In this document: piece after piece, positions 4,710 through 63,034 of the stretch
Position numbering within the stretch: position 1 is the stretch's first letter
Layout: every line of letters starts with the position of its first letter
Virus record (IMG/VR): IMGVR_UViG_3300032893_000029
Span: 1 to 64,000 of that record
Strand: one strand, 5' to 3'
DNA: 64,000 nucleotides
Origin: a virus
Position numbers and translations under genes: made by a program
Notes under the pieces: generated by a model
What the model saw: the letters and a program-made list of their open reading frames with translations, nothing else
Told to the model about the DNA's origin: nothing
The model's database searches: none

Positions 4710-5176
4710 ACTTTCAAAAGCGGCCTGAATGTCTGTTCCAGCGTCTTCTTCGCCTCGATCGACGAGGCCAAGATAAAAAAAACGATGGCGTTCCGCGTCA
4801 GATCGCCGGCTTCTTCGTCGATGCGGCCCTGTTTCAGGGCGGTGTCCAGCGGCAGCATTTCCCAGCCGTTGTCGCCGGCGACAAAGACATTTGTCAGCCG
4901 GATCATTTCGTTGATCAAGCCGTTCTCGACGCCGTCGGGACCGTCCCAGACATTGTCCTGCTTCGCGATGTCCTCGATGGTCAGCGCGGCGGTGCGCCAG
5001 CCCGCGGTCCAGACATAGCGGAGACCTTCGCCCCAGATCTGCGAATAGGCCTTGGCGATGATCCTGTAGTAGCGGCGGAAGACATCGGCGGAGAGCGGCG
5101 CGGCATGGACAAAGATCTGCCCGTCGCCGCTGTCGACGGAGAATGTGAGATTGAGCTTCTTGTCGATCCGGATCAT
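4607..5176 (-). CDS. Tail assembly chaperone
   Basis: 189 aa between the tail tube and tape measure genes. Confidence 0.7.
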   Translation of the reverse strand: MIRIDKKLNLTFSVDSGDGQIFVHAAPLSADVFRRYYRIIAKAYSQIWGEGLRYVWTAGWRTAALTIEDIAKQDNVWDGPDGVENGLINEMIRLTNVFVAGDNGWEMLPLDTALKQGRIDEEAGDLTRNAIVFFILASSIEAKKTLEQTFRPLLKVWDGQLTSSRAMEFQSSLPISTATDSSSAKTPAA

Positions 5177-5640
5177 GAGCCGGCGCCGTTATAGAGATCG
5201 GAATTGATCGGATAGAAGCCCCTGATGCGGAGCCGGTAGCCGTTGTCGCGGCCGTTGAACGTCAACTGCTCGACGCCGCCGATAGAGCAGTTCCGCAGGA
5301 TGTACGGCGACAGCTTCGACGAATCCGGGCGGACCGTGATGTCGCCGAGATCGGAATTGGTCTCCATCTTCCGCTTGTAGCTGTCGGCGAAGGCCTGCGA
5401 AGTCAGAAGATGGCAGCGGAGCTCCGACATCAGATAGGGCTGCGGCGACTTCGTCGCCCCGGTCGCATTTTCGATGTATTCGACGGAATCGCCGGTGAAG
5501 GCCAATTGCAGCATTTCGCGGCCGAGATAGGGCGCCGTGATGTTGTAGGCCGTGAACAGCGGAATCGTCACGCTGCCGCGGACCCGATTGAGAAGACCCT
5601 GCGGCACATTCGGGTTCACGCCCGGAGAATTACCTGGCAT
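5173..5640 (-). CDS. Tail tube protein
   Basis: 155 aa beta-rich protein directly after the sheath; NPNVPQGLLNRVRGSV N-terminus. Confidence 0.75.
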   Translation of the reverse strand: MPGNSPGVNPNVPQGLLNRVRGSVTIPLFTAYNITAPYLGREMLQLAFTGDSVEYIENATGATKSPQPYLMSELRCHLLTSQAFADSYKRKMETNSDLGDITVRPDSSKLSPYILRNCSIGGVEQLTFNGRDNGYRLRIRGFYPINSDLYNGAGS

Positions 5641-5658
5641 TGAAGCATCTCCTCGAGA

Positions 5659-7053
5659 TTACGGGAATTGGACGGCGTTGAGATTGATGATGACCTGCTC
5701 AAAGCCGAGTTGCGGCGAGAACGCGACCTGGAGACCGCCGTATTTCCGGGCCTGATAGTTCGACGGGTTCAGCAAGACATACGTCGTGAACGGCACGGCG
5801 TTGATGGCGATGTTGCCGGCATAGACGCCGTTGGTGACGTTGTTGGCGAATGTCGTCGGATCGGTTTCGACCAGGATCGGATTTCCGAGCAGGAGACCAT
5901 AACTGACGCCGGTGGCGCAGACGCCCTCCTCGACGCTCTGCAAGGTGTTGATGCCGGCCTGGTCGTAGTACAGCGGCGCCAGCGGATCGTTTGAGCCATT
6001 GATCACGGCGTTGGTCAGCGCCAGATCGGATTGCAGGATCAGCCAGTCGATCGAGTACCAGTAATCGATGGCGTTGACATCCATCGTGGTGCCGTAGGCG
6101 AGCATGGCGTTTGAGATCCCGCCTTCCGCGGCGGATTTCACGATGTTGACGCCCGCGGCCTTGAGCTCAGCCAGGATCGTCGAGTTGCCGGCCTTCGGAT
6201 ACACCGTGACATCGAACTGGAAGTTGTAGCAGAACTGCGTCGCCTTGTTCGTCGCGCTTGGATTGCGGTTCAGCACGTTGAACATCGTGGCGACGACACT
6301 GAACTCCGTCGCCGGCGCCGCCGGCGCCTGGACTTCACCGATCACCGACTTGACGCCGGCAAAACTGGTGTAGTTCCCCGTCGTCATAGTGGTGTCGAAA
6401 TAAGTCATGTCGTTGGTCGCTTCGTATTCTTCGACCAGCGTCACGTATGTCGATTGCGAGGACCATTCCGGCGGGACGCAGTAATGATAGAAATATCCGA
6501 CATCGCCGTCCTCGTATTCGGTGTTCGGATATTTTTCGAGATAGGTCGCCAGCGCCGCGATGGCATTGACGCTCCCCAGCGCGCCGAGCTCGAGCACATA
6601 GACGGCAAGCGTCGAGCCCTGGGCCCACCACTCCGCATTCATGTCCGTGACTTCCGCGACGGACACCGAAACATAGGTGCCGAGCACGGTTTCCGAGCCG
6701 GGATTCCCTGCCAGCGGATAGGTGAAGGCCGACGCGCCGGTGATCGTACAGGGGAAGGTGCCGTTGTAGCCCGACGGTGTGCAGCCCGCGATCGTCAGAT
6801 TGACTATGTCGCCGATCTGGAACGGCAACGGCGCCTCTGTTGTCGCCGATACCGTACCGCCGGACCAGGACAGCGAGGCCAGCGCCGCGGCGGGGGTCAG
6901 GATCGATGCGAGATCGGTTTCCGCGGTGAGAAGCTGGATCGACCCGGCGGTCAGCGTCGTGCCGCCGTGGCTGACGAAGCAGCCGGTGTTCTGCAACGTC
7001 AGCGGTTCGGCGGCGACGCTCTGAGTTGCATTTACGACAGTGATGTCACCCAT
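5659..7053 (-). CDS. Tail sheath protein (DUF3383-like)
   Basis: 464 aa; DYWYSIDW..NAVINGSN..PLYYDQAGINTL sheath C-terminal pattern. Confidence 0.85.
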   Translation of the reverse strand: MGDITVVNATQSVAAEPLTLQNTGCFVSHGGTTLTAGSIQLLTAETDLASILTPAAALASLSWSGGTVSATTEAPLPFQIGDIVNLTIAGCTPSGYNGTFPCTITGASAFTYPLAGNPGSETVLGTYVSVSVAEVTDMNAEWWAQGSTLAVYVLELGALGSVNAIAALATYLEKYPNTEYEDGDVGYFYHYCVPPEWSSQSTYVTLVEEYEATNDMTYFDTTMTTGNYTSFAGVKSVIGEVQAPAAPATEFSVVATMFNVLNRNPSATNKATQFCYNFQFDVTVYPKAGNSTILAELKAAGVNIVKSAAEGGISNAMLAYGTTMDVNAIDYWYSIDWLILQSDLALTNAVINGSNDPLAPLYYDQAGINTLQSVEEGVCATGVSYGLLLGNPILVETDPTTFANNVTNGVYAGNIAINAVPFTTYVLLNPSNYQARKYGGLQVAFSPQLGFEQVIINLNAVQFP

Positions 7054-7079
7054 ACCGGGGTCCCCTCTCTAGAGCGCGC

Positions 7080-7544
7080 TTACTGCTGGAAGCCGTGCGC
7101 GTTGACCGCGGCGTTGGTGTTGCCGGAGCCCAGCGCCGGCAACGTCAAGACGATCGCGGTATCGACGGCCGATGCCGGAAGCGGCTTCGGGAAGTTGACG
7201 ACAAGCGGCGTCAATCCGGTGTTGACGCCGGCAGGCACCGCGATGATGAAGGTCATCGTACCGCCGAGAAGCCCGGTCAGCGTAGCCTCGACGACGCCGG
7301 CGGCAGTTGCGCCGGTACCGGTGATGACGAAGCCATCGATGTAGGTTGTCTTCCCCGCGACTGCGGCCAACGTTGCCACCGCGGCAGCATTGGCGACATT
7401 GCCGCTGGCACCGATGATCTGCGTCTGTTCCGCCGCCGGCGGTTCATCCGAAATGATGAGATAGCCGTTGCCATCGACCTGGACCGGCATCTGCTTACCG
7501 CTCGGGTTCTGCCCGAACATATTTCCCTGGATTCCGTTCTGCAT
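7080..7544 (-). CDS. Hypothetical virion decoration protein
   Basis: ATG 7544 with GAGGAG RBS; Ala/Gly/Thr-rich beta-sandwich-like sequence. Confidence 0.55.
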   Translation of the reverse strand: MQNGIQGNMFGQNPSGKQMPVQVDGNGYLIISDEPPAAEQTQIIGASGNVANAAAVATLAAVAGKTTYIDGFVITGTGATAAGVVEATLTGLLGGTMTFIIAVPAGVNTGLTPLVVNFPKPLPASAVDTAIVLTLPALGSGNTNAAVNAHGFQQ

Positions 7545-7557
7545 CGTCTGGTTCTCC

Positions 7558-8055
7558 TCAAGAAGCGGCGCAGAGCACGCCGACATTCGACAGATTTGCG
7601 GTGGCAACGCCGGTGTTCTGGATCGTCACGGCGAGCGCCTGAAACGGCACCCGATCGACGAAGCCGGTCCATGCCGGCTCATCGGCGAGCATGTTGATCG
7701 TCACAAGACCGCCGACTGGAATCCGCCCGGCCGTGTCGAGGTAGCGCTGTGCCGTCAAGATTCCGGTCAGCGACAACTCTGCGCCGATCGACACCAGCAA
7801 AAACCCTTCGCAGAGAATGAAGCCGCTGTCCCAGGTGTCATCCGCTGCGAGTGTCGACGGCGCCGGCATCGGGATCGTCGGGGTGAACAGCGGCGTCGCC
7901 GTCACCGGCAACGGATTGGAATCCGACACCGGCAGGCCGTTGATTTCGGGAACGGAATGCGGCGTCAGTTGACCGGCATCGTTCCTTTCGGCCTGAAGCG
8001 GGACCTTGTTCTTGAAGGCGTCAAGAACGGTGAGGGAGACAGTCTCGTCCGCCAT
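7558..8055 (-). CDS. Hypothetical virion protein, paralog of 17990-18361
   Basis: TLAADDTWDSG..QRYLDTAG..VTIQNTG aligns with TLAAGATWNSG..QRYGDTAG..VTFENTG. Confidence 0.6.
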   Translation of the reverse strand: MADETVSLTVLDAFKNKVPLQAERNDAGQLTPHSVPEINGLPVSDSNPLPVTATPLFTPTIPMPAPSTLAADDTWDSGFILCEGFLLVSIGAELSLTGILTAQRYLDTAGRIPVGGLVTINMLADEPAWTGFVDRVPFQALAVTIQNTGVATANLSNVGVLCAAS

Positions 8056-9174
8056 CTATACCCCCGCGAAAACGGCGAGATAGCCGCTGTTGTCCGGATC
8101 GGAAAAATCGAGCGACGGCTGTTCCACGATCGGCGGAATCGGGCCGGCGCCTGACGGGAAGAACTCCGGAATGCATTCCTCGATCAGCGCCCGCGCGATC
8201 TGGTTCATCCGCTGCTGGAAGTAATTGATCTCAAAAACGATCTCTTTCTTCTGCACGATGACGCCGAGCTCGGTCTGCACCCGATGCAGGTCCTTGATCA
8301 CGGGCATGTTCATGATGCCGAAGTCGTCGGGATTGTTCTCTGCCCATTGCTGGACGAAGTCGGCGAAATCCAGCGCGGCGTCGTTGTTCAGGCCGAACAG
8401 CGTGATGCGGACGGTTTCCTTGCAGATCTGCCAGCGGTTCATCTGGCTGTCGAAACTCGGGGCCGAAGCCAGGGCTTCCGTCGTTTCCGGCGAGATGAAG
8501 ACCGAACCCCACGGCGGCGTCAGATTGGCCGGAACCAGAAACGCCGGATAAAGCGGGATGTCGTTGCCGAAGGCCTCATAGAACGCCGGCGTGTAATAAT
8601 TCATCTTCAGCCACAACGGCAGGCTGTTCGACACGATCTGCTTGGTCTGAAGATCGCTGAGCTCGTCGACAAGCTGGATCGCGGTGTCGGGATAGACGGC
8701 GTCGCCTTCGTAGTGCCACAGCCCGGCGGCGCGATAGAGCAGGCCGTGCGAACCGAAGGCGAAAGTCAGATCCTTGTAGCGGCCGATCCAAAGCTGGTTC
8801 GGCCCGACCTGGTTGAGCTTTTCGATCGGGCCTTCCGACGTGAAGACCATCCGATTGACGGAGAAGTTCTGGTCTTCCCTCTGGTCGCGCCGCGAGGCGT
8901 AGTGCAGCGAGCCGCGTTGCGTGAAGGTCGACGCCGGCGCCGCCAGGGTCTGCGGCGTGTTCAACGGGACTTCGTTGAAGCCCATCACGTTGAACAAAGT
9001 GCTCTTGCTGACCAGATCGGACTTGACCCAGAAGACATAGCCGTCCAGCGGCAGTGCGACGCGGACGTAAAGCGTGAAGCAGACTTCTTGCTGTTCCGAG
9101 ATCGCCCGCTCGCCCTGCTTCAGGGCGGCGTCCAGCGGCGATGCTACATCGGCGCCTTCGTCAAGCGACGGCAT
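8056..9174 (-). CDS. Neck/tail completion protein
   Basis: 372 aa upstream of the sheath; YVRVALPLDGYVFWV..GIMNMPVI pattern. Confidence 0.6.
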   Translation of the reverse strand: MPSLDEGADVASPLDAALKQGERAISEQQEVCFTLYVRVALPLDGYVFWVKSDLVSKSTLFNVMGFNEVPLNTPQTLAAPASTFTQRGSLHYASRRDQREDQNFSVNRMVFTSEGPIEKLNQVGPNQLWIGRYKDLTFAFGSHGLLYRAAGLWHYEGDAVYPDTAIQLVDELSDLQTKQIVSNSLPLWLKMNYYTPAFYEAFGNDIPLYPAFLVPANLTPPWGSVFISPETTEALASAPSFDSQMNRWQICKETVRITLFGLNNDAALDFADFVQQWAENNPDDFGIMNMPVIKDLHRVQTELGVIVQKKEIVFEINYFQQRMNQIARALIEECIPEFFPSGAGPIPPIVEQPSLDFSDPDNSGYLAVFAGV

Positions 9175-38555: not shown

Positions 38556-39320
38556 CTATTTCTGTGCGGTCTTGTTCGTCCTCTTCACCGCGATGCGAAT
38601 CGCGGCGACATCCCGATTTTTAGCAAATGCCGGCGGCTTGAACGAAACGGCGTCGCCCCAGGTGTGCCGCAGAGCTCGCGACGCCTTCTCGAACTGCTCC
38701 GGGGTCACCAGACCGACATTGCCGCCGCGGCCGGAAAAGACGCGGCCACAATCGAAATAGAACCGGATGTCGGCATAGACGCAGCGGTCCTCGAGCAGCG
38801 TTTGCAGCGTCCAGTCGACATCGGCGCGACCGAAGTACTCCGGCCGGTAGTGCCGCCGGCGGGCCCGTCCCATGACGCCGAAGGCGTTGCAGACCGATTG
38901 CGTCGGCACGATCGGGCGGACATCCGGTTTGATGACTGTGGTGTTCGGCGTCCTGGAGAAGCAGAACGTCGTCAGACCGAGGTCTTTCGTGTTGCGGGCG
39001 GAGTTTTCGAGGATGGCGAGGATTTCGTCGGGACTGTGGATGTAGCGCTGAGATCCCGTCGTCACCTTGACGCCGCGGAAATCGTCATCGATTTCGATGA
39101 GAATATCCGCGCTGACGTTATCCATCATCCAGTTGATCACATAGGGCAGGCCTTCCATCGGCGGGTGGAGCAGAAGCTTGTCCTTCGGGACTTCCGACGC
39201 GTAATCCTTGGCCTCGCGCTCGTCGACGCAGATCACAGCGGAGGGAAGCAGATGCCGCAGCAGCGGCATGTTGTGGGCGCGCCGGCGGGACGGGACCACG
39301 ATCCGGTAATCGAGCTTCAT
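38556..39320 (-). CDS. GT-A glycosyltransferase (GREB1/TET-associated type)
   Basis: IVVPSRRR..ILIEIDDDF..ADVDWTLQ..GGN. Confidence 0.8.
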   Translation of the reverse strand: MKLDYRIVVPSRRRAHNMPLLRHLLPSAVICVDEREAKDYASEVPKDKLLLHPPMEGLPYVINWMMDNVSADILIEIDDDFRGVKVTTGSQRYIHSPDEILAILENSARNTKDLGLTTFCFSRTPNTTVIKPDVRPIVPTQSVCNAFGVMGRARRRHYRPEYFGRADVDWTLQTLLEDRCVYADIRFYFDCGRVFSGRGGNVGLVTPEQFEKASRALRHTWGDAVSFKPPAFAKNRDVAAIRIAVKRTNKTAQK

Positions 39321-39474
39321 TTTGCTATCATAACCAAAACATTCGCCATCAGCGTTGTTGCCGCGGTCGCGAGGCAGGTAAGCAACAGTCGGTCGAATCC
39401 GCGCCAACCGAACCCATTAAAAACATCGGACCAGAAGGCGCCGAGCAGGAACAGGCAGATATACGATTCGGCTG

Positions 39475-40146
39475 TCATTTCTTCGGCTCCAGCAGCTTCA
39501 GCAATGTTTCGGCGCGGATCGCGCGCGATGTCCCCATCCGGCCGCGGCGCTTCTCCGGCTTCAAGCCGAACTTGTCGCAGAGCACGTTGAACTCGTGCGT
39601 CGTCGACGCCAGGACAACGAAGAAGTCGTAATGCTCGTGCGGTTGCAGCGCCATTCCAGGGACTTCAACGGACTCTTCGTCTTCTTCGTCTTCCTCTTCC
39701 TTCGCCAGCTTGTGACCGATGTCGGCGAGCAGCCGGCGGATTTCGGCGTTGGTTTCGTCGCGGGCCTTCTCGAGCAGAGCGGCAAGCTTTTCCTTGTTGC
39801 CCTTCGCCATCTGCGAGATCGGATCGTAGGTCAGCAAAATCTTGTCGGCCTCTTCGTCGTTAAGATCGACGATGAGAACCGGAACCTCCTGGTCATCGAG
39901 GATGTCGCTTCTGAGATGCCCGTCGAGCAGTTCGAACCCATCGTCGACTTTGCGGGCGACAACGGCGCCGACGATGCCGATTTCCTTCAGGATTCCGGTC
40001 AACGCGCCTTTCTGGCTTTCCGGATGGACGCGCCAGTTCTTCTTGTTGCGCTTGAGCTCTTTGCCTTTGATGCGGCGGAAATCGACGATGCGGTCACGAA
40101 AGGCCGTGCTGACTTCGGGAGCGGGTTTCGGTTTCGGCTTTGTCAT
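39475..40146 (-). CDS. ParB/Srx N-terminal domain protein (modification-associated type)
   Basis: NWRVHP..EIGIVGAVV..LLDGHLR; acidic linker. Confidence 0.8.
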   Translation of the reverse strand: MTKPKPKPAPEVSTAFRDRIVDFRRIKGKELKRNKKNWRVHPESQKGALTGILKEIGIVGAVVARKVDDGFELLDGHLRSDILDDQEVPVLIVDLNDEEADKILLTYDPISQMAKGNKEKLAALLEKARDETNAEIRRLLADIGHKLAKEEEDEEDEESVEVPGMALQPHEHYDFFVVLASTTHEFNVLCDKFGLKPEKRRGRMGTSRAIRAETLLKLLEPKK

Positions 40147-40157
40147 TGCATGGCCCC

Positions 40158-40712
40158 TCAGATGGAAATCTCGCTTCGAAAACGCTTGTAATCACCGCCG
40201 CATGGCTCGACGAAAGACGCCCACGGCATTCGCTTCATCATCGAGGAATCGTCGACGCGCAGAACGCCGGCGCGCCGCGCGTCTGGTCTGAGCGCAAAAA
40301 CCCATCGATCCTTCGTCGCTTGCTGCTTGCCCTCCGTCCATGAACCGTTGCCGGTTGGGGGGGGGCGGAGACGATGCCATGTCGGCGCCCACGCCCAATT
40401 GCAGGCTCGATAGAGCGCGCCGGTATGGCCTTGCGACGGATCTGAATAGCTGACCACAGTCGTCGCTTCGACGTGAGAGCGCGCCCACTTCGCAAAGCGA
40501 GACCATTGACGCGATCCTGCATTCGGTTCGCCGAGCAGGCACCATCTGACCAGCTCGAGCCAATCACCAGGAAGCTTGCGCGATCGCGGAGACGAAAACA
40601 GCATGACGCCAAATTCGTCTTTCCATCCGAATGTCGCTGTCTTCGTCGGACCGAGATAGTGACGCCCGACCAGGACACGATTGCACTCTTCAACGCTCGC
40701 CAGCACTTGCAT
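40158..40712 (-). CDS. mom: Mom-like GNAT-fold DNA modification protein
   Basis: HYLG..LELVRW..VVSYSD..GHTGALYRACNW. Confidence 0.75.
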   Translation of the reverse strand: MQVLASVEECNRVLVGRHYLGPTKTATFGWKDEFGVMLFSSPRSRKLPGDWLELVRWCLLGEPNAGSRQWSRFAKWARSHVEATTVVSYSDPSQGHTGALYRACNWAWAPTWHRLRPPPTGNGSWTEGKQQATKDRWVFALRPDARRAGVLRVDDSSMMKRMPWASFVEPCGGDYKRFRSEISI

Positions 40713-40726
40713 CCCTCGTCATTCTC

Positions 40727-40762
40727 AAAAAAGAAAAGGACCGGCGGTTATCCCGCCGGTCC
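40727..40762 (-). terminator. Rho-independent terminator upstream of the mom cluster
   Basis: GGACCGGCGG/CCGCCGGTCC hairpin followed by a T-rich tract on the minus strand. Confidence 0.65.
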
Positions 40763-40879
40763 CTCTGGAAGATGCGTTTCGTTCGCGAGAATCGCGATGT
40801 GAGAACCGTGCCTACATGACGTTCTCCTTTCGCTCTAGCTTCTGGGACCGGCGCACCGGTCCTTGGGTGCCTGGAAAGA

Positions 40880-41119
40880 CTAGGCCAGGTGATCGTCGAA
40901 ACCAAGCACGGCATCGACGAGCTCGGCGCCATAGATGTAGATAAGCCGTTTCCTCGACATACCGCCGCGGCGGTAGTGGTTAATCGAGGCGATGTCCTTG
41001 TTGCGGCGTTCCAAGCTGGCATTGAGAAGAAATTCCTCTTCGCGTCGGCGTTCTTCGGCGGACATCGGCTCCGGACGCCGGTGACGGGCGATCTTTGCCG
41101 CGGAAACCTCAGACGCCAT
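40880..41119 (-). CDS. Hypothetical protein
   Basis: ORF in operon. Confidence 0.5.
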   Translation of the reverse strand: MASEVSAAKIARHRRPEPMSAEERRREEEFLLNASLERRNKDIASINHYRRGGMSRKRLIYIYGAELVDAVLGFDDHLA

Positions 41120-41555
41120 CACCTTGCTCGACAGCACTGCCGGCGTTCGGCTCGACTTCTCCTGGCAGGAATTCGCCGGCGGCAGGATCGGCCGCGGCGC
41201 CGTTGACAGCGGCGAGCGGCGGGATCTGCGGGGCATCGACGATGTCTTCCGGTTTTGGTTGCCATTGAGCCAGTGCGGCCTGAAGAGCCGGGTGGCGCCA
41301 GCAGAGATCGTTGGTCTTGTGAACCTGTGGATAGACCGTGCGTAACTGCGTCGACTGCTTGCCGTTCGGCAGCGCGAGCGGAAGCAGCATGACGCGCGGC
41401 GGATCGGCTCGGCAGATCCGATTGGTGAAGTCGACGACGCCGCCGGGTCGTATTCCGGGATTCGACATCGGGCAATTGCCGCAGTTTGCGGCGTAGTGTT
41501 TCTGCGGCGCGCCAGCGGCGGCTTTCTCGGCTTCGACGTTCTGCTCTTCGGTCAT
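41109..41555 (-). CDS. Hypothetical Cys-rich protein
   Basis: CGNC..CRADPP..YPQV..CWRH. Confidence 0.6.
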   Translation of the reverse strand: MTEEQNVEAEKAAAGAPQKHYAANCGNCPMSNPGIRPGGVVDFTNRICRADPPRVMLLPLALPNGKQSTQLRTVYPQVHKTNDLCWRHPALQAALAQWQPKPEDIVDAPQIPPLAAVNGAAADPAAGEFLPGEVEPNAGSAVEQGDGV

Positions 41556-41608
41556 TCGTGCTCTCCTCTTTCTGTCTCTGACGTACTTCGGGACGAAACG
41601 CGGCATGG

Positions 41609-42691
41609 TTATTTTTCCTCCGCAAGCCGGATGACGACATCCTGGCCGTATTCGCGATCGAGCCTGGTCCGGTAATTATTCCGGACCCAACTGGCGCGAA
41701 ACGCTTTGGTGTAGACGAACTCGACGGACTTGCCATCCTCGACGACTTCGCAATCGGCGAACCAACTCAGGATTTCTGCGCTTTCGATTCCGGCGTGAAG
41801 CAGCCGGCCGACGTGATGGCCGATGCGGGCCCGCAGCCGATCGAGCTCGATGTCGATGTCATGCTTCGGCGCCATCTGTTCGAGATAGCCCTTGTAGGCG
41901 CCTTCGCGGAGCCAGGTCCGCGGATGCTGGACGAGAAGCGGGCCCGCCGATGACGGCCGGCGCTCGTTCTCCTCTTCGATCCAGCGGCCGTGCGCGTCGA
42001 TCGCGGCGATCATTTCTGCCGGCGTCGGCGGCGACTTCGAAAGCTGGATCGACTGGTAGGCCTGTTTCGCCGCCTCTTCGGATGAATCCCTCCGGAAGCC
42101 CGGCCAGCGCCGGAAGGCCGCCCAGATCTGGTCCCATGTCGGGACCGGTGGCGATGCTGTCTTTTCCGTCCCGAAAAGCGGCATCTCACTCTCTCCCCCT
42201 AGAGAGTTAAGGGACGGTTCTTCTGACGGTTCTCTATATGCGCTGTCGGATTCTGCACCCTTTCGTGTCGGCATCTGCACCGTTTGGGTCGGACTACGGT
42301 GCAGATTCTGCATCCTTTTTTTCCTTCGTTTCTGGAACCTACAGGCGTCGCAGTCGGGATTTTCCTGCTCGTGCAAACCCTGCAATTCCTGCACCCTTTC
42401 TAAGTCTATGACGTAGTGAACGAATCGGCTCCGGCCACCGAGATTGACCCCCTCCCCGATTGGCATCCCGTCCTCGTCGACCCGGATGATGATGCCGTCT
42501 TCCCGAAGCCGTTTCAGGGCATCCTGGGTCGCCCGAACGGATTGGCGGCACTTCGCAGCGAGATATTCGACACTTGGGAAGATGTTCTCGCCGTTATGGT
42601 CGCCAGCATCGGCGAGTGCGAGAAGGACGAGAAGCTGTCCCCCCTGGTAAAGGCATGTCCTCCAGATATCGGTCATGACCTGGATGCTCAT
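41609..42691 (-). CDS. Replication initiator (winged-HTH, lambda O-like organisation)
   Basis: LLVLLALAD..FPSVEYLAAKC..SVRATQDAL; HPRTWL; internal iteron-like repeats. Confidence 0.8.
   Translation of the reverse strand: MSIQVMTDIWRTCLYQGGQLLVLLALADAGDHNGENIFPSVEYLAAKCRQSVRATQDALKRLREDGIIIRVDEDGMPIGEGVNLGGRSRFVHYVIDLERVQELQGLHEQENPDCDACRFQKRRKKRMQNLHRSPTQTVQMPTRKGAESDSAYREPSEEPSLNSLGGESEMPLFGTEKTASPPVPTWDQIWAAFRRWPGFRRDSSEEAAKQAYQSIQLSKSPPTPAEMIAAIDAHGRWIEEENERRPSSAGPLLVQHPRTWLREGAYKGYLEQMAPKHDIDIELDRLRARIGHHVGRLLHAGIESAEILSWFADCEVVEDGKSVEFVYTKAFRASWVRNNYRTRLDREYGQDVVIRLAEEK
42251..42400. repeat. Iteron-like repeats (putative origin)
   Basis: CTGCACCCTTT-like units at 42251, 42273, 42306 and 42387, plus an inverted copy near 42297. 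Confidence 0.55.
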
Positions 42692-43038
42692 GGGCGATCG
42701 ACCTTCCAGGAAAGTCGATAAGTGTGCGCAGAAAACGGGTGCCAACTGATTCGGCCGCCAATCTTCGTTCTATTCTTTCGAATGACGTAACCGGCTCTGA
42801 CCAGACGATTGATTGAGCGCGCGATAGTGGCGCGATCTACACAGACAGCAGCAGCCATTTTTGTTTGGCTAACCCGGCACCAGTTTTTCTTTCGAGCCAA
42901 CAGGATCAAAAAACAGAGCACCCGCAGATCGTTGCGTTTTAGCGTCGGATCACTGCAAGCACCGAATGGCACCGCGATCTGCGCAGGCGGACGGCCAAAA
43001 AATTTCGGATCGGTTCTGAATTTTGCGGCGCGGGTCAC
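42688..43038 (-). CDS. Winged-HTH protein
   Basis: SQTKMAAAVCVDRATIARSINRLVRAGY. Confidence 0.7.
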   Translation of the reverse strand: MTRAAKFRTDPKFFGRPPAQIAVPFGACSDPTLKRNDLRVLCFLILLARKKNWCRVSQTKMAAAVCVDRATIARSINRLVRAGYVIRKNRTKIGGRISWHPFSAHTYRLSWKVDRP

Positions 43039-43823
43039 AGCATCGACCCCTGGCGTTTCGGGTCCGGTGTGACCGCTTCCGCCGGCATCCACTTAGCCGA
43101 TTTGTCCTTGATCTCGGCATAGACCCGGGGATGCTGCGCGCGGAATCGCGGCATCTGCCGGCCTTCGAAAAGCTTGCCGTCCTCGACGCGAAGCCATTCC
43201 TGCGCGATCCAGCGGCGGACATCGATGTTGAGCGCCTTGAAATCGGCACGGGTCACATGACCTCTGAGCTCGAGGATGACCGCGATCTTCAGTGCGCGGA
43301 CTTTCCAGTCCGTCAATTGCACCGGCGCTTTGCTGCCGGCGATGACATCCGGCACGAAATCCGGAAGTCTGCACCGCCGATACGGCGCCCGCTCGTGCCA
43401 GGCCTCCGACCAGATTCCGGTGTCGTCGATCGCTGGGAGCACGGGATCGAAAGCACCGCTGTAGCGGAATTTCAGATCGCCGTGCCCTTCCGGCCAGCAC
43501 CGCAGAATTGTCAGACCGAGATATTCGCAGATGCGTTCGAGCTTTTGCAGCCCAACATACGCCGGGACCAGAACGGCACGGCAATCCGGACCGTTGCGGT
43601 CGAAATAGCTGTTTCCCAGCGCCTGGTTGATGACATCGAGATTCATCGCCATCTTGGCCTGAATCCCGATCTGGAATCCGTCAACTTTCCTGACCAGAAG
43701 GATGTCCCAGCCGGCGGTTTCGTTGTAGGCGATCCAGGCCTCGCCGATGAGCGATGTGAAGCGGGCGCACAACGCGGCCTCGCTTTCGAACTTCGGCTCT
43801 TCGGTCCTGACCCCCTTTCGCAT
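43035..43823 (-). CDS. PD-(D/E)XK-like hypothetical protein
   Basis: YNETAGWDILL..IGIQAK. Confidence 0.55.
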   Translation of the reverse strand: MRKGVRTEEPKFESEAALCARFTSLIGEAWIAYNETAGWDILLVRKVDGFQIGIQAKMAMNLDVINQALGNSYFDRNGPDCRAVLVPAYVGLQKLERICEYLGLTILRCWPEGHGDLKFRYSGAFDPVLPAIDDTGIWSEAWHERAPYRRCRLPDFVPDVIAGSKAPVQLTDWKVRALKIAVILELRGHVTRADFKALNIDVRRWIAQEWLRVEDGKLFEGRQMPRFRAQHPRVYAEIKDKSAKWMPAEAVTPDPKRQGSML

Positions 43824-43827
43824 CCCG

Positions 43828-44028
43828 TCAGCTCCGATAGATGCGGCGATTGCGTTTCGGTCTCGGCACGCCGGCGTCGTCAAGAATCTTTGCGATGGTC
43901 ATCATGCCGCGCCCCATGCGTGTGGCGATGGTCGACACGGCGAGATCGTGCGGCGGCTTCGCCAGCGCGATGATGCGATCGCGTTCTTTCTCGTCGATCG
44001 GTGGCAATGTCCGATAGGCGCCGCTCAT
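43828..44028 (-). CDS. Small HTH protein
   Basis: STIATRMGRGMMTIAKILDDAGV. Confidence 0.55.
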   Translation of the reverse strand: MSGAYRTLPPIDEKERDRIIALAKPPHDLAVSTIATRMGRGMMTIAKILDDAGVPRPKRNRRIYRS

Positions 44029-44600
44029 CAGACCGCTCCCTGATCGAAGAGCCCGACCTGGTCGCCCCAGTTGTCCCAGCCGGCGCGATCCGTTCTGGTG
44101 AACAGATCGGCGCGATTGACCAAGTTCCAGCAATGGGCGTCGACCATCGCGTAAAATTCTTCGGGCTTGCGGGAATGCTCGCGGGCCAGACCTTCGAATG
44201 TCGACGGAAACGGCTTGTGCTGCGGCGAGCCCGTGGTTGCGAGAAGAATCGGCTCGTGCATCGTCCGGACGCGATAGCCGGTCCCCATTCGGTTCTTGTT
44301 GTTGACGGTCTTTTTGAGCCAGACGATCTCGCTCTTCGGCACAAAGCCCCATGTCCGCACGATGTCCGTCGCGATGCCTTCGGCCATCGCCCAGCCCGTG
44401 GTCCAGAACAGCAGGAGGCAGTCCTTGCTGGCGAGCTCGCCAACCGGAAGGGCCTTGATGTCGGCCAGCGGCATGACCTTGTAATGGGGATCGGCACCCT
44501 TGGCGGTACCGGCGTCGGAATAGTTTTTGAAATCCAGCGGAACATCGGCAACAATCAACTCGTAGCCGAACATCCGCAGTCCGCCGAACTGCCAACTCAT
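44028..44600 (-). CDS. MT-A70-family methyltransferase (motif IV variant DVPL)
   Basis: HYKVM..IKALPV..LFWTT..WGF..W.K..GTGY..E..REHSRKP. Confidence 0.85.
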   Translation of the reverse strand: MSWQFGGLRMFGYELIVADVPLDFKNYSDAGTAKGADPHYKVMPLADIKALPVGELASKDCLLLFWTTGWAMAEGIATDIVRTWGFVPKSEIVWLKKTVNNKNRMGTGYRVRTMHEPILLATTGSPQHKPFPSTFEGLAREHSRKPEEFYAMVDAHCWNLVNRADLFTRTDRAGWDNWGDQVGLFDQGAV

Positions 44601-44772
44601 CGCACACGCTCCTTCGCGAGCGCTGCCATCTGTCCGTGATTCGCCGGACCCACGGCAAGGGGGTCCATCGCGTTTCGTTCCGGAAAAATTTCTAGCTGGC
44701 CTACGCAAAACAAAGGGGCGCCTCCCGGCTGATCCCGGGAAGACACCCCAGCATTACCCCCGACGCTGCTTC

Positions 44773-48974: not shown

Positions 48975-49174
48975 TCGATGTTCATAAAAAAGCGCTCGAG
49001 GCGGCAAGGCAACTTCTCCCGGATGGCTTTGTCATTGTCCCGAAAGTCCCGACCGAAGCTATGCTCGCCGCGGCGAACAAGGCTTCGCTTTCAAACGCGG
49101 TGCTAATGGACGATACGCGCTTTGCCTGCGAGCGCGCGACATACGAAGCCGCAATCGCGGCTTACACCATCTAA
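48971..49174 (+). CDS. Hypothetical protein
   Basis: VPKVPTEAML motif. Confidence 0.6.
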   Translation: MIDVHKKALEAARQLLPDGFVIVPKVPTEAMLAAANKASLSNAVLMDDTRFACERATYEAAIAAYTI

Positions 49175-49191
49175 CCAAAAAGAGAAAAACG

Positions 49192-50733
49192 ATGACTGAC
49201 GGAACTGTCCTAGAACCCGGCATCGGGCACAACGCACCCCCGGAGCCAATCCGCTATCCCAGCGATGTTGCCATCCTTGAAGATCTGAAGCGGCGATATC
49301 CGGAGCTCGAGACGCGACCGGTCGAATGGGAAGCCGCGCTCGCCACCTTCCCGGAGAGCTTCACGCTTGAAGACGCCGATCGCGCCGCGGCGCTGCAAGA
49401 TCTGCTCGGTCAGATGGACAAGACAAAGAAGGTCTGGAAAGGCACGCTCGATGCCGAGACAGACGAGCTCGATACCAAGATCAAGATCATCCGCAATTTC
49501 TTCAAAAAGGGGATTGAGTGGATCGGCGGCGGTGCCAAGGAAAACGGTGTGCTCAACATCTGGCGCCCGCGCCATCAGGCCTTTCTCGATCTGAAGGCGG
49601 AAGACAACCGCCGCAAGGCCGAAGAGGAAGCGGAGCGCCAGCGGCAAGCTGCTGAGGAAGCCCGGCAGAAAGCCGAACACGACAAGCAACTCGCCTTCTG
49701 GCGCAGCTTCGATGCCGAAATGGCGCGGGCGCGGAAAGAAGCCGCGGAGCAGGCGGCGCGCGATGCCGAAGAAGACAAGATGTGGGCGGAGGCCCGCGCT
49801 GAGCTCGCCGCCTACGATGCCAGACAGGCGGAGAAACAGCGCCGTGAGGACGAGCGCCACGGCCGGGAACAGAATGTCGAGCATATCCGCGCGATGAAAC
49901 AACTGCATCGCGAGGCGAAGACGCTGGCCGACAGCGAGAACCAGATGATCATCGGCGAGCAATACAAAAGCGACGCCCGGCTCGACGCTCTTGTGCTTGA
50001 GGATGGCGAAATCGCGAAGCTCGCCCGCGAACTCCTGCACTCGCCCTATCTCGACGATGACCAGAAACAAACCGTTGAAGGCATCCGCGCCGATCTTGTG
50101 ATCTGGCGCGAACAGCGTCTCGCCCGCTTCGGCGATGCGGAACGTCTCGTGCATGAACGCCGGGCCCGCGAGGCGCGGGAACGCGAACAGCGCGAAGCCG
50201 AACAGGCCAGGATGCGGCGTCTCGGTGTCTGCCTTCTCCAGATCGGCGCCGAAGCGACGCGGCGCGCCAGGATCGAAGCGGAAGAGGCGGCGCAAGCGGC
50301 GAAGCAAATCGTCAAGGACGCCAAGACCGATGTGAAAGACGCCGAGAAGGCGGAGACGCTGGCAAACCGCGATGCCCGCACGGCGACACGCGAGGCCGGT
50401 TATTCCGAACGCGAAGCCGACAAGACGGAAAACCGTGCCGATCGGCTGGAACGCCGTGTCGAGACCGCAACGGATGCCGACTTCGGGCGCCATCGCGGCG
50501 AACTCGGTACCGTTGGCACGCTGACCGGCCACTACGCCGCGGACATCTTCGACTTCGAAGCCCTTCGGAAAACCTGTGGCGAGCTCGGACCCTACTTCAC
50601 CGATGACGCGCTGAACGGCGCCGTTTATCGCTGGATGACGGAGCGCCGCGGCACCTGGACCGAAGAGCGCAAGGAAGGGCTTCTGCCCGGCGTGACATTC
50701 ATGTGGATCGTCGACTCGAGGATCACGACATGA
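49192..50733 (+). CDS. Long coiled-coil protein (recombination region)
   Basis: GIGHNAPP N-terminus, EAEKR-rich helices, LPGV C-terminus; upstream of bet. Confidence 0.7.
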   Translation: MTDGTVLEPGIGHNAPPEPIRYPSDVAILEDLKRRYPELETRPVEWEAALATFPESFTLEDADRAAALQDLLGQMDKTKKVWKGTLDAETDELDTKIKIIRNFFKKGIEWIGGGAKENGVLNIWRPRHQAFLDLKAEDNRRKAEEEAERQRQAAEEARQKAEHDKQLAFWRSFDAEMARARKEAAEQAARDAEEDKMWAEARAELAAYDARQAEKQRREDERHGREQNVEHIRAMKQLHREAKTLADSENQMIIGEQYKSDARLDALVLEDGEIAKLARELLHSPYLDDDQKQTVEGIRADLVIWREQRLARFGDAERLVHERRAREAREREQREAEQARMRRLGVCLLQIGAEATRRARIEAEEAAQAAKQIVKDAKTDVKDAEKAETLANRDARTATREAGYSEREADKTENRADRLERRVETATDADFGRHRGELGTVGTLTGHYAADIFDFEALRKTCGELGPYFTDDALNGAVYRWMTERRGTWTEERKEGLLPGVTFMWIVDSRITT

Positions 50734-60761: not shown

Positions 60762-60961
60762 ACGCCTACATCGTGGTTTCCAATCTGCTCGAGATCGCCA
60801 GGCAGCGCGAACATCAGGCGCACGCCCGGCGCTTCGAAGCGCAGGAATCGGCAATGGTGGAGGTCGGCGACATCCGCGGCCGCGCCGCTGTGCTCACCAG
60901 GGCATTGACCGGCGGCTACGCCGCGAGTCTTCCGGCGTCGCTGATCCACCGCGCTGCCTAA
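60758..60961 (+). CDS. Hypothetical protein
   Basis: Last gene before the terminator. Confidence 0.5.
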   Translation: MNAYIVVSNLLEIARQREHQAHARRFEAQESAMVEVGDIRGRAAVLTRALTGGYAASLPASLIHRAA

Positions 60962-60963
60962 AC

Positions 60964-60993
60964 AAAAAGACCCCCGGATTTCTCCGGGGGTCT
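60964..60993. terminator. Terminator hairpin at the convergence point
   Basis: AGACCCCCGGA/TCCGGGGGTCT with T-run on the minus strand. Confidence 0.75.
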
Positions 60994-61145
60994 CTAGAGC
61001 ACCGGCTTTCGCCGTCTGCCTTCACCATAGGATGCCCTACATCAGAACTGCAGGAGCATCAGCTTTCTTCGTCTTTCAGCCACCAGGACCGTTGTCGTGT
61101 TTGTCATGAAAACGACTCCTCTGTTTCGACTCGCACCCTGCCATA

Positions 61146-61179
61146 GAAAAAGGGCCCGGAGCTATGGCGCCCGGGCCCT
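61146..61179 (-). terminator. Terminator after the tmRNA coding piece
   Basis: GGGCCCGG/CCGGGCCC followed by TTTT on the minus strand. Confidence 0.65.
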
Positions 61180-61184
61180 CTCCT

Positions 61185-61500
61185 TCTGTTGCCAGGGCCC
61201 CTTAAGGGGCCCCCGGAGCTCAGGCCGCTACGCGGTCCGCTCCAGCGAACGTATTGTCGTTCGCATCTATGTTGCCCGCGGGTCTCCTGTGAGGCCTTCC
61301 CGCCCGTCGATCCTGTTTCGTCCCCTTATCGCCCACCGGCCAGACTGGTTACTGGGGCAATTCTGCCGCAAGCGGCGCGACCGTCGGTCCCCCGAGCGGA
61401 CTCGCGATGGGCGTTTCGGTGCCAACCGAAACTGGTGGAGACGCCGGGTACCGCCCCCGGGTCCGGCTCGATCCGTCCTCACGATCACTGATTTGCGAGC
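61185..61500 (-). ncRNA. ssrA: Two-piece (circularly permuted) tmRNA; outer ends approximate
   Basis: Acceptor piece ends CCCGGCGTCTCCACCA at 61433; coding piece starts GGGGACGAAACAGGATCGAC at 61325; G3-U70 pair; tag ANDNTFAGADRVAA* at 61264-61220; GGCAACAGAA near the 3' end. Confidence 0.92.
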
Positions 61501-61528
61501 GGCGGGACCATAGCGCCGGCGCGGACAA

Positions 61529-61557
61529 GAAAAAAGCCCCGGCCGGAGCCGGGGCTG
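61529..61557 (-). terminator. Terminator after the lysis genes
   Basis: AGCCCCGGC/GCCGGGGCT followed by a T-run on the minus strand. Confidence 0.75.
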
Positions 61558-61613: not shown

Positions 61614-61919
61614 TTATCGATGACCCCGCAGTTCTGTCAATTGCCGTCGCTGTCGGCCGCGGGCGAGATAGGGTCTCAAAAAGAACATGACACCGACGAC
61701 GAGAACGCAGGCGTGCATTCCGAGGATGCACCATCTGGCGCCCCCGATCGCAATCGGAAATTCTGCAAGATGGCTTACAGCCAGCACGAGCGAGCAATAC
61801 AGCCAGATTGCAACCGTCACTCTCATCCATATCGGATGATCGGCATAATCGCGCAAAAACACTGCAACCACGAAGAATGTACCGATCAAAAGAAGGATGG
61901 CGTCGAGACGCAGGAACAT
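61614..61919 (-). CDS. Membrane protein (3 TM; holin/antiholin-like)
   Basis: Three hydrophobic helices and a basic C-terminal tail. Confidence 0.55.
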   Translation of the reverse strand: MFLRLDAILLLIGTFFVVAVFLRDYADHPIWMRVTVAIWLYCSLVLAVSHLAEFPIAIGGARWCILGMHACVLVVGVMFFLRPYLARGRQRRQLTELRGHR

Positions 61920-62233
61920 TACTGCTCTCCTTTACTGATGCCTCTTAAACGTTTCAGCACACCGATGGGGTCTTGCCTTATAGCGTTCACGCCGGCGATG
62001 GCGCCGCCGCAAAGACCCATGCCGGTCAGCCCGAAGAAAAATCCGAACGCACCGATCCACTCGTTGTCCCAATGCAACCACTGTACCAGCGGCACCGGCA
62101 GAAGGATCGACAGCGCGGAACCGCAGAGCACGATCGACAAACCGCTAAGCCAGGTGATCCTTCCCTGAAACAGGAAGGCAATCGCGACGCCGAACATCCC
62201 CCATTCGGCACCGCCGACAGACATCTTGTCCAT
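61919..62233 (-). CDS. Putative holin
   Basis: Three TM segments; GFFFGLTGMGL..DPIGVLKRLRG. Confidence 0.65.
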   Translation of the reverse strand: MDKMSVGGAEWGMFGVAIAFLFQGRITWLSGLSIVLCGSALSILLPVPLVQWLHWDNEWIGAFGFFFGLTGMGLCGGAIAGVNAIRQDPIGVLKRLRGISKGEQ

Positions 62234-62245
62234 GACGCAAAACCT

Positions 62246-63034
62246 TTATGCCGTGACCGCTGCCAGGTCGGATTGCAGTTGTGCGAGATCGAAGCCGCTT
62301 GGTGCAGTGCCGGATGTCCTGATCCAGTCCGGCGACAACACGGCGTAGGCTTCATCGGCGTATGCGGCGAGCCACGCCCATGTCAGCCGCTTCGGCGCTC
62401 CCCACGTGATGCAGGTCAGCCCGTTGGCATCATAGGCGACGAGCGGCACGGCATGACCGCCCCAGGAGTCCGGTTCCCATTCGCCGGTGAGCGTGAAGCC
62501 CGGCGAAAATCCCGGTGGCACATCCCAGACATCCTGCGACTGCGCCGACAGCGGCAGAGCGACACCGATGTAGGCGGCGCCGAACAACATCAGCGTCGCC
62601 TTAACGTCGGTCTGGTTCGTGAAATCGATCGAGGCGTAGGCGTTGATTTTGTGGCCGGCGATTCCGGTCTGTCGCCAATAGTTCAGAACGTCGAGCTCGA
62701 CGCAGCCGTTGTCGGTTGAGGCGTCACCGGGGACATAGCCGCCAAGAGTTTCGTAGGCGGCGAGGATCTGTGGATCTGGCGCGATGAACTCCGTTCCGGC
62801 ATCCGCGGTCCAGAGCTCGATGCAGTGCCCGACCGCGGCGATCGTGCAATCGCCCAAGCTGTCGTTCAGCATCATCGGCCAGTTGTTCTTGACCGCGGCA
62901 GTGTAATCCACCATCGCCGGCAGCGGCGGCAGCGCTTCCGGCTTCAGATATTTCGCCAGCTTCAGCGTTCGGCTGTCGTGCCGTGGTTTCGCTTTTCCGA
63001 GTCTGCAACGGGCAGGATCGTGAAACATCGTCAT
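62246..63034 (-). CDS. Papain-like cysteine peptidase
   Basis: MLNDSLGDCTIAA, GGHAVPLVAYD, ITWG. Confidence 0.75.
   Translation of the reverse strand: MTMFHDPARCRLGKAKPRHDSRTLKLAKYLKPEALPPLPAMVDYTAAVKNNWPMMLNDSLGDCTIAAVGHCIELWTADAGTEFIAPDPQILAAYETLGGYVPGDASTDNGCVELDVLNYWRQTGIAGHKINAYASIDFTNQTDVKATLMLFGAAYIGVALPLSAQSQDVWDVPPGFSPGFTLTGEWEPDSWGGHAVPLVAYDANGLTCITWGAPKRLTWAWLAAYADEAYAVLSPDWIRTSGTAPSGFDLAQLQSDLAAVTA

Follow-up and report, generated by a model that had tools for sequence, protein, structure and literature searches.

A complete, circularly permuted alpha-type tmRNA gene with a 107-nt spacer in a GC-rich wetland myovirus

The Caulobacter-type two-piece transfer-messenger RNA (tmRNA), in which the gene order is circularly permuted, is said to go back to work by Keiler, Shapiro and Williams in 2000. 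Phages carry such genes too: a two-piece tmRNA was described in phage Melnitz by Buchholz et al. 2022, and the accessible part of that paper gives tmRNA genes in 402 of 18,146 phage genomes and, among 133 unique phage tmRNA structures, 53 that ARAGORN reads as two-piece, 50 of these from aquatic phages (PMC9004378). The phage examples given by Hudson et al. 2014 are, in the accessible text, all one-piece (PMC4131195), while the available part of the 2025 tmRNA database paper, whose database comprises 11,946 permuted sequences, counts 79 unique phage sequences and notes that spacers can enclose a tRNA gene or a repeat (PMC11915505). In the open full-text literature, to which subscription journals and supplements do not belong, we found no paper on a contrast in spacer length between phage and bacterial tmRNAs and no functional test of a phage tmRNA. 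Here we describe an alpha-type two-piece tmRNA gene (ssrA) on the first 64,000 bases (1-64000, the window) of the 73,635-bp IMG/VR record IMGVR_UViG_3300032893_000029. An earlier note, made from the letters of this stretch alone, had pointed to the locus and held that phage tmRNAs are mostly one-piece, which understates the published record (53 of the 133 unique structures being two-piece in the accessible part of PMC9004378).

The gene is complete, circularly permuted and alpha-type, and lies on the minus strand at ~61145-61525, as delimited by ARAGORN, Rfam and the predicted fold. Three independent detectors are concordant. By ARAGORN, the sole RNA gene on the whole record is a permuted tmRNA on the minus strand (61129-61525) with the tag ANDNTFAGADRVAA*; alpha_tmRNA (RF01849) matches 61301-61470 on the same strand with 65.5 bits (gathering score 50, E 1e-15), and tmRNA_permuted (RF04321), on that strand too, is matched over its full model at 61220-61481 and scores 64.9 bits (gathering score 47, E 3e-10). 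The permuted order is visible in the ARAGORN output, where the 3' tRNA domain occupies gene positions 55-93 and the 5' tRNA domain 201-228, and our own pairing script agrees. The acceptor stem, GGGGACG paired with CGUCUCC and followed by ACCA, has 7 bp with G:U as pair 3; a G3:U70 acceptor pair is an alanine identity element. Open reading frames (ORFs) overlapping the gene have a flat GC content by codon position (0.63/0.64/0.68), and because they show no codon-position bias the tmRNA region is not protein-coding. The permuted ssrA proposed in the earlier note is thereby borne out by ARAGORN, RF01849 and RF04321, with the strand now given as minus, and its acceptor stem (GGGGACG/CGTCTCC-ACCA), tag ANDNTFAGADRVAA and 107-nt spacer at 61326-61432 are all correct; its span of 61185-61500 falls somewhat short of the gene, whose real extent is the larger one given above. 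The parts are listed here 5' to 3' on the minus strand, with their basis in brackets.

61535-61556, minus strand: intrinsic terminator ending the upstream lysis-type genes, just before the tmRNA unit (9-bp stem, 8 G-C pairs, TTTTTT)
61472-61525, minus strand: 5' region or leader of the acceptor piece (ARAGORN start, RF04321 alignment)
61433-61471, minus strand: 3' half of the tRNA-like domain, with T-arm CCCGG-GGGCGGUA-CCCGG, then CGUCUCC and ACCA (ARAGORN, RF01849)
61326-61432, minus strand: intervening spacer of 107 nt, predicted to be removed on maturation (acceptor-pairing script)
61413-61432, minus strand: extra 8-bp hairpin GUUUCGGU-UGGC-ACCGAAAC, directly 3' of CCA (minimum-free-energy, MFE, fold)
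61331-61412, minus strand: branched domain closed by GCCCAUCG/CGGUGGGC, with one G:U (MFE fold)
61298-61325, minus strand: 5' half of the tRNA-like domain and start of the coding piece, GGGGACG then GAAACAGGAUCGACG (ARAGORN, Rfam)
61220-61264, minus strand: tag frame from the GCG resume codon to UGA, 14 codons, ANDNTFAGADRVAA* (ARAGORN, RF04321)
61184-61193, minus strand: GGCAACAGAA loop motif near the 3' end of the coding piece, in a hairpin loop (motif count)
61147-61178, minus strand: GC-rich hairpin GGGCCCGG...CCGGGCCC then UUUUU, the probable terminator and 3' end of the coding piece (sequence and fold)
60966-60995, minus strand: second minus-strand terminator, at the junction with the plus-strand block ending at 60961 (terminator scan)

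The scan that yielded the last of these, which has a loop limit of 8 nt, does not list the hairpin at 61147-61178. A by-eye look for a Caulobacter-type promoter gave a match too weak to claim; transcription of the tmRNA may start from an unrecognised promoter or come by read-through from the lysis genes.

The tRNA-like domain is near-identical to the alpha consensus in the Rfam alignments, and its 3' half matches the RF01849 consensus everywhere except at one acceptor-stem pair, which covaries with its partner. The leader (61472-61525) holds a GCGCC/GGCGC hairpin followed by CUAUGG, like the alpha consensus 'UGccg..cggCUAUgG', as well as the GUGAGG strand that is the P2-equivalent partner of the coding piece. 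Around P2 the RF04321 alignment keeps five of the six inner pairs and the outer UGAGG/CCUCA helix, with the middle helix deleted; PK1 could not be drawn. The resume context, CAUAGAU-GCG, is consensus-like and intact, the stretch ahead of it being shorter than in 13 aligned homologues, and the frame opens with ANDN and closes with VAA-stop (GCG GCC UGA). Near the 3' end, the motif GGCAACAGAA, shared by 195 of the 219 bacterial and 20 of the 91 viral loci, is unique on the tmRNA strand of the 73.6-kb genome and absent from the opposite strand; its distance from G1 is +132 here, while the bacterial median is +191. When the predicted pieces were cofolded, the acceptor stem and T-arm were recovered and the remainder varied with the assumed 5' end; the cofold was not used to define P2. 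Judged from these features, the RNA is a compact form of tmRNA whose tRNA-like domain is pristine and whose tag frame is intact, which would speak for function over decay. We consider it likely that the phage gained a genuine and probably functional alpha-type two-piece ssrA gene by horizontal transfer, yielding a working tmRNA that adds rescue capacity during infection.

Several points weigh against this reading. The P2 region is shorter by about 24 nt than in the 13 aligned homologues (8 bacterial, 5 phage-borne), and a convincing PK1 could not be drawn. RF01849 aligns only locally, over model positions 82-172 of 355, and its 65.5 bits lie below all 20 of the 20 other long-spacer viral copies (83-160 bits). 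The predicted fold places the first seven tag codons in a 7-bp hairpin, and the promoter scan found no sigma-70-like promoter for the tmRNA. The searches gave no close homologue, and no RNA run with the locus occurs among the public runs. Much of this could also mark an inert passenger or decaying relic, an ssrA captured not long ago that has lost its use or has yet to gain one: the gene is a singleton carried by no sampled relative, its Rfam scores are the lowest among the viral copies examined, P2 is shortened, PK1 is unclear and no promoter was found. Yet the elements that can be checked (acceptor stem, G:U pair, T-arm, resume context, tag frame, 3' motif and terminator) are all intact, and compact tmRNAs are common in small genomes, so that we regard a relic as improbable.

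The tag itself admits a different reading, in which ANDNTFAGADRVAA would steer rescued polypeptides elsewhere, for example through weaker adaptor binding or towards another protease. It is an unusual tag, for which ARAGORN prints 'Tag not identified'. A pattern search with its opening, ANDNTFA, through ~185,000 bacterial and archaeal species genomes had 22 matches; the 5 of them that were scanned with ARAGORN (3 titled Alphaproteobacteria, 2 Gammaproteobacteria) include a single tmRNA, whose tag diverges after residue 7 and which is unrelated outside the core. A tag-based pattern gave 11 matches in viral contigs, none of them a tmRNA, and ANDNTFAGA gave none in metagenomes. The ends of the tag are conventional, however, with an ANDN start and a VAA end, and endings in AVAA and RLAA are present among other alpha-type tags. 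Reprogramming of the tag seems to us a slim prospect. Slimmer still is the idea that the RNA acts as a decoy for SmpB and blocks trans-translation in the host, a role proposed in the accessible parts of PMC4131195 and PMC11915505 for the mycobacteriophage DS6A RNA that has a tRNA-like domain only. In its favour, conservation in the present RNA is highest in the tRNA-like domain, to which SmpB binds; a decoy would need neither tag frame nor resume context nor 3' motif, yet all three are kept, and we think this role very unlikely.

The tmRNA is phage-encoded, and not a host copy at a prophage boundary, the outcome that the earlier note had named as fatal to its proposal. In BLASTN against 96 viral and 105 bacterial alpha-type ssrA loci it was matched only in the conserved core (query 66-103 and 203-230), with no match in the tag, P2 or spacer, and likewise only the tRNA-like core was matched across the ~320 bacterial and viral ssrA loci that were fetched, the bacterial part being the matches listed. 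It sits inside 127-bp direct terminal repeats, in a record of 60.7% G+C with the myovirus genes for sheath, baseplate, tape measure, portal and large terminase. The absence of integrase and smpB, noted before for the vicinity, extends to the whole 73.6-kb record, on which neither the tyrosine integrase family (PF00589) nor SmpB (PF01668) has a match even at E <= 1. The record also encodes a 5'-3' exonuclease, RecT, ParB-like proteins and a replication initiator, and the phage is a lytic-looking 73.6-kb myovirus whose host is most likely an alphaproteobacterium.

Searches for relatives returned little. In the named-phage collection there was no DNA relative of a 24-kb region, and the tmRNA gave 32-nt core matches only. 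Relatives of the terminase (35-55% identity) lacked a tmRNA over the cut-off in 36 of 36 cases, two proviruses reaching sub-threshold scores of 44.8 and 40 bits; these 36 were chosen from 80 loci kept, with contigs below ~20 kb dropped. Records sharing a 262-aa gene found close to the tmRNA held none either, be it a permuted tmRNA in 14 viral records (7 of them at least 90% complete) or any tmRNA in 80 metagenome loci; such loci share that gene alone, with no synteny, and say little on the phage lineage. The best named capsid relative, from enterobacterial myoviruses, is only 44.6% identical, and for that reason no host was assigned from the capsid. These searches show only that the phage is without a close relative in the searched collections and that the tmRNA is not a general trait of its wider group.

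Parts of the stretch recur in three wetland DNA runs. Contigs of one run, X1, which may be the source sample, match the whole compared stretch with 0 differences, and two wetland DNA runs, X2 and X3, contain identical pieces of it. Only the X3 piece enters the tmRNA gene, the spacer and coding piece being covered by neither, and X2 has a low-depth gap with no contig over 61184-61403. No tmRNA variants occur in the wetland-run contigs, hence no natural covariation. Run X1 also contains a second alpha-type ssrA on a 93-nt record, which matches 61304-61325 and 61433-61460, with the tRNA-like domain one letter off on each side and a 29-nt spacer of bacterial type; it was sequenced to a depth of 49 (phage contig, 41.9) and could come from a host candidate or from an unrelated bacterium.

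The stretch between CCA and G1 was compared between viral and bacterial loci by a script that requires 7-bp acceptor pairing and ACCA, with flanks complete for 80 loci per scan. The four scans gave the following.

Viral contigs, seed GGGGNCGAAANAGGATCGACG: acceptor found in 93 of 96 loci; 65 unique spacers of 5-293 nt, median 85 nt, 15 of them at least 107 nt
Bacterial genomes, seed the 21-mer of this phage: acceptor found in 103 of 105 loci; 76 unique spacers of 2-232 nt, median 24 nt, 4 of them at least 107 nt
Bacterial genomes, seed the commonest viral 21-mer, among the matches listed: acceptor found in 100 of 120 loci; 99 unique spacers of 3-174 nt, median 36 nt, 2 of them at least 107 nt
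Viral contigs, seed the commonest viral 21-mer: acceptor found in 71 of 73 loci; 50 unique spacers of 27-293 nt, median 85.5 nt, 12 of them at least 107 nt

With the commonest viral seed, viral and bacterial spacers differ at p 2.4e-17 (Mann-Whitney, the bacterial ones being the matches listed); viral spacers often share closing-stem sequences and may be one clade, and part of the short-spacer 'viral' loci may lie in host DNA next to a provirus. From these medians and ranges, the 107-nt spacer of this phage, which the earlier note had singled out as long, is indeed long for a bacterium (medians 24 and 36 nt, the latter among the matches listed) and is ordinary for a viral contig (median 85 nt, with 15 of 65 at or above 107 nt). 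The long-spacer viral loci are sound: all 20 of the 20 checked with Rfam are true alpha tmRNAs, at 83-160 bits and 19 of them full length, with no other Rfam family inside their spacers. ARAGORN calls a tmRNA at 63 of the 96 viral loci (by hand count) and misses several with long spacers. In MFE folds a closing stem, with a median of 10 bp, is present in 63 of the 64 unique viral spacers of at least 20 nt, starting 0-3 nt past CCA and ending 2-5 nt short of G1; bacterial spacers are likewise stem-closed in 109 of 154 cases, with a 5' offset of 0-16 nt (among the matches listed).

Several long viral spacers contain small ATG-started ORFs (L010 and L052, 264 nt; L041 and L074, 159 nt; L009; L024 and L060; L067). 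One of them encodes a 77-residue hydrophobic protein behind AGGAG, with L010 and L052 differing at 2 residues; another encodes a 38-residue membrane-like peptide and is open in two diverged copies; and some extend into the mature tmRNA.

In the phage under study, both hairpins that had been reported for the spacer, GUUUCGGU/ACCGAAAC and GCCCAUCG/CGGUGGGC, are present in its MFE fold, while its description as structured stands only weakly: the fold has a z of -1.60 against shuffles, 11 of 200 of which fold equally well, and is not significant. The spacer contains no ORF starting with ATG or GTG and no Rfam family, has no paralogue in the genome and shows no similarity to the fetched ssrA loci. 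Its closing stem starts 20 nt past CCA, outside both the viral (0-3 nt) and the bacterial (0-16 nt) distribution, because the extra 8-bp hairpin intervenes; the usual 5-nt leader (GAUAA) before G1 is kept. None of the 172 other stem-closed spacers scored has such a hairpin next to CCA, and a pattern of CCA plus the first hairpin had 0 matches among the viral contigs. On the modelled fold, this hairpin would be the one architectural oddity of an otherwise unremarkable spacer.

The spacer could nevertheless be the selected product, with the permuted gene serving as a cassette that releases a 107-nt structured small RNA, which is compatible with a working tmRNA since the tmRNA may function as well. 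The greater length of viral spacers (median 85.5 against 36 nt, p 2e-17, the bacterial ones among the matches listed), the fixed stem-closed slot in 63 of 64 viral cases, the small ORFs that some viral spacers contain, and the extra hairpin seen here and in 0 of 172 others would fit a product of this kind. The insignificant fold (z -1.6), the lack of a homologue in the fetched loci and in the viral-contig hairpin search, and the lack of an Rfam family count on the other side, and we hold a selected spacer to be unlikely. More broadly, it is conceivable, at a similarly low probability, that the CCA-G1 stretch is a processing-defined cargo slot in phage two-piece tmRNA genes. That the cargo here would be a 107-nt non-coding RNA released by host tRNA-processing enzymes is a comparably tentative suggestion, and that the released RNA might act alone, as a regulator, decoy or processing modulator, is no less speculative.

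For the preferred reading, a working tmRNA that adds to ribosome rescue, the steps of processing, charging, tagging and benefit are inferred by analogy from the Caulobacter-type two-piece tmRNA. In the precursor fold, the 3' acceptor strand of the upstream piece would pair with G1-G7 of the downstream piece. Cleavage by host RNase P at G1, together with host 3' trimming to CCA, would release the 107-nt spacer, and the two pieces would stay together through the acceptor stem and the shortened P2. The RNA would be charged with alanine by host AlaRS through G3:U70 and delivered to stalled ribosomes by host SmpB and EF-Tu. Translation would then resume at GCG and append the degron-like tag ANDNTFAGADRVAA, which ends in AA. 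The phage may gain from additional ribosome rescue while host and phage mRNAs undergo degradation. Any such gain would be attributable to trans-translation alone, and not to a tRNA supplement, because the tmRNA is the only translation-related RNA: ARAGORN finds no tRNA or tRNA-like RNA on the whole record, nor does Rfam in the 64-kb window at E <= 0.05, where no family besides tmRNA was found.

The earlier note had gone further and proposed a role in counter-defence together with a tRNA-mimic RNA; no evidence bearing on the role was found, and the same ARAGORN and Rfam searches give no candidate for the partner. In this proposal the phage tmRNA would replace or outnumber the host copy under attack by RNase or tRNase defences or by toxin-antitoxin mRNA interferases, nucleases that flood the cell with non-stop messages or cleave the host tmRNA. 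Outside the core, the phage copy differs from all sampled bacterial ssrA genes, so that a sequence-specific nuclease could miss it, and it is a lineage-specific addition, as accessory counter-defence genes often are. The missing partner RNA and a neighbourhood that holds no known anti-defence gene tell against the proposal, and it would in any case be a special case of added rescue capacity and not a separate mechanism. We know of no defence system that targets tmRNA, and we rate counter-defence as unlikely.

The tmRNA forms its own unit between terminators at the meeting point of a plus-strand block (ending at 60961) and a minus-strand block, just downstream of lysis-type genes. Phage genes and terminators (61556-61535 and 60995-60966) thus flank it on both sides, as had been observed before. 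No other Rfam family, riboswitches included, scored above its cut-off near the gene (search at E <= 1). Directly upstream lies one further feature.

61614-62233, minus strand: two small membrane-protein genes (101 and 104 aa)

The first of the two has a clear ribosome-binding site (upstream AAAGGAGAG), one of the proteins is holin-like (phrog_2359 holin, E 6e-5), and the pair is likely a lysis cassette. Beside it, at 62246-63034 on the minus strand, is the gene for the 262-aa protein mentioned above, of the unannotated family phrog_19005, which has more than 566 relatives on metagenome contigs without conserved neighbours; the gene behaves like a mobile element of the lysis region that stands alone, and its product may be an endolysin. 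Among the viral contigs that share this gene, L215 has seven tRNA genes (Ser, Tyr, Pro, His, Ile, Val, Leu; 5087-8179) 1-4 kb after the homologue, and therefore the region after the 262-aa gene holds translation RNAs in another phage too, while L208 has a HEARO RNA (RF02033, 115.2 bits) at 8311-8573 on the minus strand. On the other side of the tmRNA, between its terminator hairpin and the second terminator (60995-60966), a 21-codon ORF, MTNTTTVLVAERRKLMLLQF, occupies 61042-61107 of the minus strand; a GAGGAG site precedes its ATG by 9 nt. Elsewhere in the window, 38556-44708 is a DNA-modification cluster of glucosyltransferase-like, Mom-like and ParB/methyltransferase-like genes and a DNA methyltransferase, which suggests a modified genome.

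With this locus, a mid-sized, GC-rich phage of soil or wetland joins the viruses that encode a ribosome-rescue RNA themselves. The more useful output is the spacer survey, in which viral spacers exceed the bacterial ones listed for the same seed more than twofold in length and sit in a fixed stem-closed slot; the tentative cargo reading, if true, would widen the slot idea from AT-rich phages of marine and fresh waters to a GC-rich wetland phage. A tractable cultured system for measuring the function of phage tmRNAs and their spacers is available in Rhodobacter phage RcRudolph, which is the best BLAST match of the present tmRNA in the phage collection. Its record (OP009285.1) carries, at ~49,042-49,456 on the minus strand, an alpha-type two-piece tmRNA with the tag ANDNVRMDAQALAA and a spacer of ~98 nt, matching RF01849 over the full model at 94.8 bits and RF04321 at 103.6 bits. 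This tmRNA is unannotated in the record, where a 'hypothetical protein' coding sequence, RCRUDOLPH_61, lies over it, and the accessible part of the genome announcement makes no mention of a tmRNA (PMC9753621).

Set beside known systems, the gene resembles the Caulobacter-type two-piece tmRNA (RF01849/RF04321) in the order of acceptor piece, spacer and coding piece, in its near-consensus tRNA-like domain, in an ANDN... tag ending in AA, in the GGCAACAGAA 3' loop motif and in the 5-nt leader before G1. It differs in being carried by a phage without SmpB, in its 107-nt spacer (bacterial medians 24 and 36 nt, the latter among the matches listed), and in its body, with ~24 nt of P2 missing, the 3' motif at +132 against a median of +191, and RF01849 matched over 82-172 only. 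As in the temperate phages and genomic islands that use ssrA 3' fragments as attachment sites, ssrA-derived sequence here lies in a mobile element; unlike such fragments, the gene is complete and far from the contig ends, with no PF00589 match on the record and bacterial ssrA matched only in the core.

With Melnitz, the pelagimyophages and other aquatic phages it shares a complete alpha-type ssrA placed between terminators in an integrase-less phage, as far as the accessible part of PMC9004378 describes them. According to the same part of that source, Melnitz-type phages are large, AT-rich and marine and have tRNA genes, whereas this phage has 73.6 kb, 60.7% GC, a wetland origin and no tRNA; Melnitz has a glutamine riboswitch, whereas the Rfam search of the window gave no riboswitch match here. 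The long spacer with a closing stem is common to viral copies generally. By contrast, the acceptor variant GGGGACG occurs in 0 of 96 viral loci, and the closing-stem offset of 20 nt sets this spacer apart from 63 of 64 viral ones, with 0-3 nt (a feature derived in this analysis). RcRudolph is likewise a GC-rich phage with an alpha-type two-piece tmRNA and a similar spacer, of ~65 kb and infecting an alphaproteobacterium; unlike the present phage, to which its DNA shows no relationship, it belongs to the siphoviruses (cluster RcG), and its tmRNA matches RF01849 in full length. The kind is already known, phage two-piece tmRNAs being published; what is distinctive is a singleton acquisition in a GC-rich wetland myovirus without tRNA genes, with a unique tag, a compact body and a displaced closing stem.

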